From a virus (taxonomy: Duplodnaviria > Heunggongvirae > Uroviricota > Caudoviricetes), in the IMG/VR virus record IMGVR_UViG_3300003310_000099, positions 234,295-298,294 of that record: a stretch of 64,000 nucleotides of DNA. The stretch is one strand, 5' to 3'. The notes under the pieces are model-generated. The model saw nothing but the letters and a program-made list of their open reading frames with translations. It was not told where the DNA came from and did no database searches. This document shows positions 25,465 to 27,158 of the stretch, piece by piece. Position numbers and translations under genes: made by a program. The stretch's first letter is position 1. Each line of letters starts with the position of its first letter.

Positions 25465-25480
25465 CTTAGCTGTACCGAGT
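25465..25480 (+). promoter_or_regulatory. element copy 7
   Basis: exact core; AGGAGG begins at +21. Confidence 0.85.
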
Positions 25481-25496
25481 GATGCAGGAGGAACCA

Positions 25497-25823
25497 ATGC
25501 CTGATTTTAACATCGAAGCTTTTTACCACTGTATCACTGCTGAACGCTTCCGTACAGAAGTTAAGGGCAGCAAAGGCAATTACACCGTAGAGTTTGGTCC
25601 GTCACAGGGTCGATATGAATACGATTACACTTGTAATTGCCAAGCGTTTAAGTTTGGTAAAGGCAAGCCATGTAAACACATCGAGGAAGTAATTGATTCT
25701 GGCAAACGTTGCGGCTGGATGCAAGTAATTGATGGCGGTATACCGCTTGAACCCCTGTGCGATGGGCACAAGGTATGTCCAAGGTGTGGTAGTGACGTAA
25801 GTGTTGCACGGCACGCAGTTTAA
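25497..25823 (+). CDS. SWIM zinc-finger protein
   Basis: YTCNC...PCKH; CPRC. Confidence 0.8.
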   Translation: MPDFNIEAFYHCITAERFRTEVKGSKGNYTVEFGPSQGRYEYDYTCNCQAFKFGKGKPCKHIEEVIDSGKRCGWMQVIDGGIPLEPLCDGHKVCPRCGSDVSVARHAV

Positions 25824-25833
25824 GGAGAATAAA

Positions 25834-26121
25834 GTGGAAGTAGAATATAAAAGCTATAGGTACGGTAAAGAATCTGTGGAAGTAGAAAGCGTCCAGGCTT
25901 TCCTTCATGACCAGATTCTTTATAAAGAAGAATACAGTGGTGGGCGTGAAAGGGTGCGACTTGAAGCTCAGCCTGAATTGGTCTGTGCTGCTTTGGGTCG
26001 TTTGGTGAATCGGCTTTTGGACAAGGGTGTTCTCAACCTGGAAGATTTGCATTTCATTGCTGATACGGGTTGGTCGATGAAGGATTTGAAGTTGAAGCCC
26101 GAAGAAAAGGACGAATCGTGA
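25834..26121 (+). CDS. hypothetical protein
   Basis: GTG start after AAGGAG. Confidence 0.6.
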   Translation: MEVEYKSYRYGKESVEVESVQAFLHDQILYKEEYSGGRERVRLEAQPELVCAALGRLVNRLLDKGVLNLEDLHFIADTGWSMKDLKLKPEEKDES

Positions 26122-26228
26122 GGCGCTAATTACTGTAGTTTACAGCCCCGTTCGTTTTGATTAGTGAAAACCAAGGGTCGTGAGGCGAATAATTACAATT
26201 AGTTTACAGCCCCGCCCTTGGTTTTCAT
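26108..26228 (+). ncRNA. tandem duplicated structured RNA motif
   Basis: two copies of TCGTGAGGCG..TAATTAC..TAGTTTACAGCCCCG, each closed by a different stem. Confidence 0.6.
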
Positions 26229-26246
26229 AATTTTCATGGAGTTGAA

Positions 26247-26726
26247 ATGAAATATGCACTGATTGACCTTGGCCCACCGCAAGGTCCAGTCTATTCCACT
26301 GCTTACCTTCACACACCTAAAGGCAACTTTATGGTGAAAGGTAATCATTTTATAATTACCAATCATTTGGCAAGTGATGATTTTCCACCTTTTTTTGGTA
26401 AGATTTTGATTCATCGCCATAAGCGTGCAGGGTCACTTTGTAATCTTATTAGTAAAGGTGTGAGGCTCAGCGTTAAACGAGAAGGTAAACGGGCATATTA
26501 CTTCTTTGAAAGTGAAGATGGTGGTTTTCTTTTTAAGAAAACCAGGCGTTTACCAAACAAGTGGATTAATTGTATTGAGCCTGATGTAAAGACTCATCTT
26601 CTGGTATCGGCGGATTACCTGGAGGAAAAAGGTCTTATTATCGGTGCTGAGTTCATTAGGCGTAAAGTTGAAGCGATGCCTGGGCATCCCAAGATTTATC
26701 AAACTTGTCCTCTTAGGAGAGTTTAA
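26247..26726 (+). CDS. hypothetical protein with TIGR02996-like C-terminal motif
   Basis: LLVSADYLEEKG. Confidence 0.6.
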   Translation: MKYALIDLGPPQGPVYSTAYLHTPKGNFMVKGNHFIITNHLASDDFPPFFGKILIHRHKRAGSLCNLISKGVRLSVKREGKRAYYFFESEDGGFLFKKTRRLPNKWINCIEPDVKTHLLVSADYLEEKGLIIGAEFIRRKVEAMPGHPKIYQTCPLRRV

Positions 26727-26978: not shown

Positions 26979-27158
26979 ATGAGACGAGCAGAAATTAAAA
27001 CTAAAACTGTTACACAAAGCAATGATGCACATTGCCACAATCCACGGTCTAACGGGCATAAAAACCGTAAATCAATCAGGCGAAATAGCTCCAAGAGGCT
27101 AAGGCAATTAGTAAAACGGGATACCTTAGCTGTACTGAGTCAGGTACAGGAGAACTAA
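26979..27158 (+). CDS. small basic protein (59 aa; not in ORF track)
   Basis: CTAAATA-AACT-ATG; Arg/Lys-rich. Confidence 0.5.
   Translation: MRRAEIKTKTVTQSNDAHCHNPRSNGHKNRKSIRRNSSKRLRQLVKRDTLAVLSQVQEN
27125..27140 (+). promoter_or_regulatory. element copy 8
   Basis: CTTAGCTGTACTGAGT. Confidence 0.8.

Follow-up and report, generated by a model that had tools for sequence, protein, structure and literature searches.

Two tandem hairpins directly upstream of a small phage gene were identified, and by comparative sequence analysis they are members of an undescribed, evolutionarily conserved RNA family that has a narrow distribution and sits as a leader specific to one gene. The family comprised 17 units at 12 loci in related uncultured huge phages, and all 17 units were located immediately 5' of genes of a single orphan family, here called the P0002 family. 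The hairpins lie in a 64,000-nt stretch of DNA (the window, to which all positions below refer) taken from a 373,404-bp IMG/VR virus record with a G+C content of ~42%. The region around them is tightly filled with small + strand genes, and both hairpins and their flanking genes are on that strand; no tRNA or tmRNA was detected.

The original prediction was that a two-part core occurs twice in succession, closed each time by a different stem. Both core strings were found exactly, TCGTGAGGCG at 26116-26125 and 26178-26187 and TAGTTTACAGCCCCG at 26136-26150 and 26200-26214, and there was no third exact copy of either string in the window. The shared core is 35-37 nt long and the two closing stems are unrelated in sequence, with pairing kept in each. 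Unit 1 (26108-26158) scored 57.9 bits with a covariance model, R1, that was built from the close clade only. Its closing helix, P1, has 8 bp, formed by 26108-26115 (AGGACGAA) and 26151-26158 (TTCGTTTT), and includes two G-U pairs; the conserved 5' strand UCGUGAGGC begins at 26116 and the string GUUUACAGCCCCG has its 3' end at 26150. Unit 2 (26164-26228), the gene-proximal unit, scored 85.9 bits with R1 and showed covariation in P1, which here has 14 bp with one G-U pair (26164-26177, GTGAAAACCAAGGG, with 26215-26228, CCCTTGGTTTTCAT). A bulged G+C helix, P2, pairs 26179-26186 with 26209-26214 in this unit, and the A+U-rich apex ends in GUUUAC (26202-26207). A U-rich tract that resembles a terminator tail (UUUUCAUAAUUUUCA, 26222-26236) overlaps the 3' arm of unit 2 and then extends past it.

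The hairpins occupy the leader of the gene starting at 26247, as had been claimed, and the stop codon of the preceding gene falls inside the first copy. That upstream open reading frame (P0001, 25801-26121) places its final four codons and its TGA (26119-26121) inside the 5' half of unit 1, with the TGA in the conserved 5' strand. The end of unit 2 is separated by 18 nt from the start codon of the P0002 gene (26247-26249), and a Shine-Dalgarno sequence, GGAG, is found at 26238-26241. The P0002 gene itself (26247-26726) encodes a protein of 159 aa with a pI of 9.8. A 136-nt stretch folded into two long hairpins with a minimum free energy of -45.3 kcal/mol, as compared to -27.7 ± 3.6 kcal/mol for 200 shuffled sequences (z = -4.9).

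Homologous loci were reached solely through the downstream protein, after which the contigs were inspected. Seven homologues of P0002 were found at 63-79% identity, and a profile search returned 26 proteins at E ≤ 0.001, of which those aligned extended down to about 26-44% identity. Of 13 homologous loci whose upstream DNA could be read, 12 had the element directly 5' of the P0002-family gene. It adjoined the 5' side of the gene in every one of the close loci (L042-L047 and L050), and it was also present upstream of the gene in the distant loci L054, L055, L056 and L057 (the same locus as L058), where R1 gave scores of 58, 46, 44, and 35 and 23 bits, respectively. In the distant homologue L059 the gene overlaps the gene upstream of it, and no element was present.

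The number of units varied among these loci. Tandem pairs were found at five (the window, L042, L044, L045 and L057), and single units at L046, L047, L054, L055 and L056; the L050 locus is truncated at a contig end, and in L043 unit 1 has decayed so that just its 5' half is left. The prediction of a tandem motif thus held for the window, but the tandem arrangement is dispensable, as 7 of the 12 loci were counted as having a single intact unit. The gene-proximal unit, corresponding to unit 2 of the window, is the one that is universally kept. L057, from a distant lineage, has the tandem form again, with entirely different P1 sequences.

Searches by sequence gave little beyond these loci. R1 found no copy in the 373-kb genome other than the two units. 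Scans with the exact core over viral and metagenome contig collections returned chance matches in G+C-rich DNA only, and scans with a degenerate core over IMG/VR and 185,579 prokaryote genomes added no members; L076 and L135 were rejected as members, with a match to the core only (16-20 bits) and no P1. No relatives were obtained from protein-based locus searches of IMG/VR with P0001, P0002 or alignment A1, and alignment A5 was too diverse to serve as a locus-search query. A tblastn search of P0002 against GenBank phages gave no match, and blastn of the region gave one match, of 83 bp at 76% identity (LR756511).

The anatomy of the hairpin was derived from an alignment of the 17 units (A4). 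P1 consists of 7-19 contiguous bp whose sequence varies freely, with arm pairs such as CAAGGG/CCCTTG, ACGAA/TTCGT, CAAGAAG/CTTCTTG, GGTAGGGG/CCCCTACC, GGCAGGGG/CCCCTGCC, ATACGGGAA/TTCCCGTAT, GCTGATAGA/TCTATCAGC and GGGCAAGAG/CTCTTGCCC. Of 17 P1 pairs tested, 12 were altered on both sides. Pairing was kept in 84% of P1 cells, as compared to 44-59% when the partner strand was slid, and the covariation score was matched by none of 500 shuffles. RNAalifold independently recovered the same P1 helix, with 10 compensatory pairs. Inside P1, P2 is nearly invariant and consists of G, a bulged U, G, a bulged A or U, and GGC, opposite GCC, C and C. Among the five inner pairs of P2, four were unchanged in all 17 units and one was altered once; because P2 never varies, its pairing is not proven by covariation, and we regard it as plausible from the sequences. 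The apex is 13-19 nt long, A+U-rich and variable in sequence, and when folded alone it reached ~0 kcal/mol in 15 of the 17 units. A stable apical stem, P3, was removed from the model; its pairs were only 78% kept and showed little covariation, and the apex has this negligible folding energy. The invariant GUUUAY (GUUAC once) is unpaired and, with 0-1 nt, bridges the apex and the 3' strand of P2. The whole hairpin is 55-75 nt long.

Mean pairwise identity was 85% in the core, 49% in the P1 arms and 51% in the apex, and the conservation of the core held where the neighboring proteins drop to 34-44% identity. The combination of covarying stems with invariant unpaired bases points to selection on both the fold and specific bases, that is, to a recognition site; the same pattern reaches across loci at 34-44% protein identity and is also seen between units 1 and 2 of the window, despite their unrelated stems. 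Only about 15 nucleotides are conserved and at the same time unpaired or bulged. The proposal that an RNA structure is under selection was therefore borne out, with the homologues retaining the core together with a closing stem that covaries; the opposite pattern, in which relatives keep the core and lose the stems, was looked for among the homologues and not found. The core needed redefinition: GWGWGGC and GUUUAY(N)GCCCC are conserved, but the TAATTAC block between them is not kept in distant relatives. In the helices, G-U wobbles outnumbered A-C mismatches by 10 to 6, which is not decisive for the strand alone, and the + strand was assigned by gene context.

A search of the whole window against Rfam 15 gave no matches at the gathering threshold, in agreement with the expectation that the motif is not in that database. 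With the limit relaxed to E ≤ 10 on 25950-26400, the matches were to unrelated eukaryotic miRNA and snoRNA models only, the best at 27.8 bits against a threshold of 50. Three roles had been suggested for the hairpins, an aptamer, a protein-binding sponge and a small ribozyme. Nothing indicates a ribozyme: the Rfam searches gave no covariance-model match to hammerhead, twister, pistol, hatchet or HDV-like ribozymes, and there was no match to known self-cleaving ribozyme families. Nothing indicates a sponge either, with a single locus in the whole genome. Both roles are unlikely, while an aptamer role is possible.

The original prediction had overlooked the U-rich tract, reminiscent of an intrinsic terminator, behind most of the units. 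At least 5 U were found in the 8 nt past the last G-C pair of P1 in 13 of the 17 units, where ~4% per unit was expected; the four units with no good U tract were L044 unit 1, L046, L043 unit 2 and L057 unit 1. In the window the stem and tail read UUUUGAUU and AUAAUUUU in the two units, a G+C-rich stem followed by a U-rich tract, and A tracts were frequently found 5' of the stem. The apex between the GGC:GCC pairs, at ~20-28 nt, is far above the usual terminator loop. The phage genome has few other terminator-like sites.

The arrangement of ribosome-binding sites divided the loci. In the window clade the gap from hairpin to ATG is 12-18 nt and contains a Shine-Dalgarno sequence, so that the window and six close relatives have a normal site 3' of the hairpin. 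At L046, L054, L055, L056 and L057 there was no Shine-Dalgarno sequence between hairpin and ATG, the hairpin ending 0-13 nt before the ATG, and the other genes on the contigs of these five loci mostly do have one. Two of the five, L046 (AAGGAG) and L056 (GAGGAG), have a strong Shine-Dalgarno sequence directly 5' of the hairpin, and there the ATG follows 0-3 nt past it.

The explanation that we tentatively favor, at slightly less than even odds, is that the hairpin is a cis-regulatory leader that acts as a conditional terminator or, in the distant relatives, as a translation gate, with a factor docking on the invariant module. Termination, read-through and a trans-acting factor at the hairpin are all inferred. 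The hairpin would act as a conditional intrinsic terminator for transcripts arriving from the upstream genes. A trans-acting factor would recognize the invariant module of bulges and loop and alter the hairpin or the polymerase, resulting in read-through, and in the distant relatives the bound or unbound state of the hairpin would gate ribosome access. A tandem pair of units might sharpen the response. A protein is favored as the factor because the association with the gene is one-to-one and no ligand-type alternative fold is visible; it could be the downstream gene's own, strongly basic product, which would make the control autogenous.

Phages are known to use protein-dependent attenuators and autogenous translational operators, among them the T4 RegA, gp32 and gp43 operators and the coat-protein hairpin of MS2. 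The element described here resembles these as a short hairpin, placed beside the start of the presumed regulated gene, in which particular bases of the bulges and loop are defined; the product of that gene is small and basic. It differs in being much longer (55-75 nt), in having a terminator-like tail and in that it can be duplicated.

The P0002 family proteins are 150-187 aa long and basic (pI 9.7-10.1), and the gene is single-copy in the 373-kb genome. Three residues are invariant (R100, P103 and W106), within a conserved RRxPxxW motif. P0002 matched no Pfam family, ToxN included. An AlphaFold model from 25 sequences had a pLDDT of 93 and consisted of an N-terminal beta domain and two C-terminal helices; no clear fold match to this model was found with Foldseek (PDB), VIA-align (48,161 chains, best Z 4.0) or the ESM Atlas. 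The C-terminal helices (LLVSADYLEEKG..AEFIR) have a weak resemblance to the 'repeat-companion' domain TIGR02996 (E 8e-4, below the cut-off), a domain found in Planctomycetes and Myxobacteria, and this sub-threshold resemblance to the NCBIfam entry was seen in 7 of 25 family members.

Several observations count against the favored reading. Four units have no good U tract, the apex is oversized, P2 is invariant and no antiterminator fold was found: pairing of the 3' strand of unit 1 with the 5' strand of unit 2 was no better than in shuffled sequences (z -1.2 to +0.6). The downstream protein has no RNA-binding domain or fold recognizable by Pfam and fold searches. The counts of G-U and A-C also weigh against it insofar as they leave the strand undecided.

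The main alternative is a riboswitch for a small molecule, with its aptamer embedded in the terminator. The predicted ligand pocket would be built from the bulged helix and GUUUAY, completion of the terminator would depend on ligand binding, and a tandem pair would make the response steeper. The HMP-PP riboswitch was exposed through an abnormally conserved terminator loop and an exclusive gene association (PMC6478431), and the reasoning applied to that thiS motif applies here almost verbatim; this precedent counts toward the favored reading as well. The two elements are both compact extended hairpins with a U tract, exceptionally well conserved bases in loop and bulges, an exclusive tie to one gene class and tandem terminator arrangements (PMC6478431); the phage hairpin differs in that it has no sequence or Rfam match, no evident alternative ON-state fold or pseudoknot and no known ligand, precedes a gene of no known function, and is confined to phages. 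The conserved core with covarying stems in a 5' leader, the one gene family and the recurrent tandem form all agree with a riboswitch. Tandem homologous domains are also known in the NAD+-I (nadA) riboswitch, two bulged hairpins in a 5' leader (PMC10702441); the phage element differs in having no Rfam match, an optional tandem form and a terminator-like tail on each unit. However, no pseudoknot or alternative ligand-bound fold was evident in the hairpins, the associated gene bears no signature of metabolism or transport, the distribution is very narrow, in one phage clade, and no more than the ~15 conserved bases left unpaired or bulged are on offer for a pocket. We consider a riboswitch improbable on balance. 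A new and very small class, limited to huge phages, that would respond to a metabolite of the host or the phage and time the orphan basic protein is likewise an improbable outcome. A comparably low probability is given to plain constitutive terminators, one or two of them, insulating the upstream genes, in which the core would be historical or a polymerase-specific stop signal. The G+C-rich stems with A tracts 5' and U tracts 3' in 13 of 17 units fit this, as does the scarcity of other terminator-like sites in the genome. Termination needs no sequence identity, yet the core is far better conserved than P1 and is identical in two units with unrelated stems. A generic stop signal would be expected to recur, and here there is one locus per genome, always at the same gene; at five loci the hairpin adjoins the start codon, and expression of the gene there must still be achieved.

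The remaining explanations, a processing site, a split ribosome-binding site and a promoter, each account for only part of the data. An RNA processing or stability element, by RNase III- or RNase E-type intercistronic cleavage or as a 5' hairpin protecting the P0002 message, is rather unlikely. Stacked P1 and P2 would give an interrupted helix of ~20 bp with conserved bulges, in an intercistronic position just 5' of the ribosome-binding site, and in these respects the element is like the intercistronic RNase III sites of the T7 type, as in T7 early mRNA. RNase E has a loose sequence preference that the loop AGUUU may resemble. Processing signals normally recur, as the T7 sites do, whereas the 373-kb genome has a single locus, and P1 length ranges from 7 to 19 bp. 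Still less probable is a translation-enhancing split ribosome-binding site, in which the hairpin would bring an upstream Shine-Dalgarno sequence beside the start codon, as described for T4 genes 38 and 25 (PMC3014915). L046 and L056, with the hairpin between Shine-Dalgarno sequence and start codon, have just this layout, but the window and most loci do not: GGAG in the window and the sites of its six close relatives follow the hairpin, and L054, L055 and L057 have no convincing site on either side. The T4 hairpins are 15-20 nt long and have no conserved core (PMC3014915), and a split site leaves both the invariant core and unit 1 unexplained. A signal at the DNA level is very improbable, whether as an inverted-repeat operator or as a sigma-70 promoter of the P0002 gene, TTTACA-N17-CATAAT (26203-26231), with TTTACA of the apex as the -35. 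This site agrees with the consensus at 10 of 12 positions and ranks in the top three over 18 kb, but promoter-like sites were not enriched (37 found, 40 expected from shuffles). The -10 hexamer is not conserved among the homologues, any -10 in L055 and L056 would overlap the start codon, and unit 1 retains GUUUAC with no -10 at all. The covariation of the arms, in place of a kept sequence, is the opposite of operator behavior.

Four further roles were considered and are not supported. For a trp-type attenuator, in which strand 2 of unit 1 would pair with strand 3 of unit 2 while a ribosome occupies the UGA in strand 1, the 2:3 folds were no better than shuffles, and the single-unit loci need no such pairing. 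A stop-codon readthrough or SECIS-like role of unit 1 was discarded, as the frame past the UGA is not conserved owing to indels in the apex. A type III toxin-antitoxin (ToxIN-like) repeat array does not fit the seven single-unit loci of 12 or units separated by unrelated stems; P0002 had no Pfam match to ToxN, and its model had no match to a ToxN or MazF fold in the fold searches. A CRISPR mini-array or solitary repeat is unsupported on the phage side, with no CRISPR-like array in the 373-kb phage record.

The conserved RNA motif is a candidate for Rfam, as a new family of a familiar kind and not a new principle. Huge phages are known almost wholly from metagenomes and the regulation of their individual genes is very little understood; the element is compact and its read-out is simple, namely termination or translation at a single small gene. 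Binding by a protein would give a first clue to what this orphan protein family does, and binding by a metabolite would make the hairpin a rare phage-borne riboswitch class.

A dispersed 15-nt element, CTTAGCTGTACYRAG, was present in 34 copies in the window (9918-63145), all on the + strand; genome-wide, the + strand had 106 copies and the - strand 2. It is typically placed 10-25 nt 5' of start codons, often within the end of the preceding gene. It is probably these phages' own promoter or another per-gene signal. The nearest upstream copy of the promoter-like CTTAGCTGTACCGAG element is at 25465-25479 and the next copy downstream is at 27125-27139, both on the + strand; these copies flank the hairpins, which are therefore internal to one gene block. 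This word recurs as AGCTGTACC ahead of genes in L046, L054, L055 and L057, and the dispersed element therefore marks the whole huge-phage clade.

The product of the block's first gene (25479-25823) is a small protein containing a SWIM zinc finger (PF04434, E 7e-5), and synteny of the gene is preserved in L042. In L055, a TnpB/Cas12f1-like gene (PF07282; 25-1179, - strand) was found upstream of the hairpin locus, at a distance of ~250 nt. L057 has a direct repeat with a period of ~115 nt (GAGTCAGAARAGTGCAAGCC ... CTAGTAAGGTGA, 1150-1360), located in a non-coding stretch of ~350 nt 5' of the tandem hairpins; this could represent an additional module of the leader, structured or repeated. In L054, the P0010 gene call begins within the hairpin (1501-1540); the true start is likely the conserved MKY at 1540, and the database protein likely has a spurious N-terminal extension of 13 residues.
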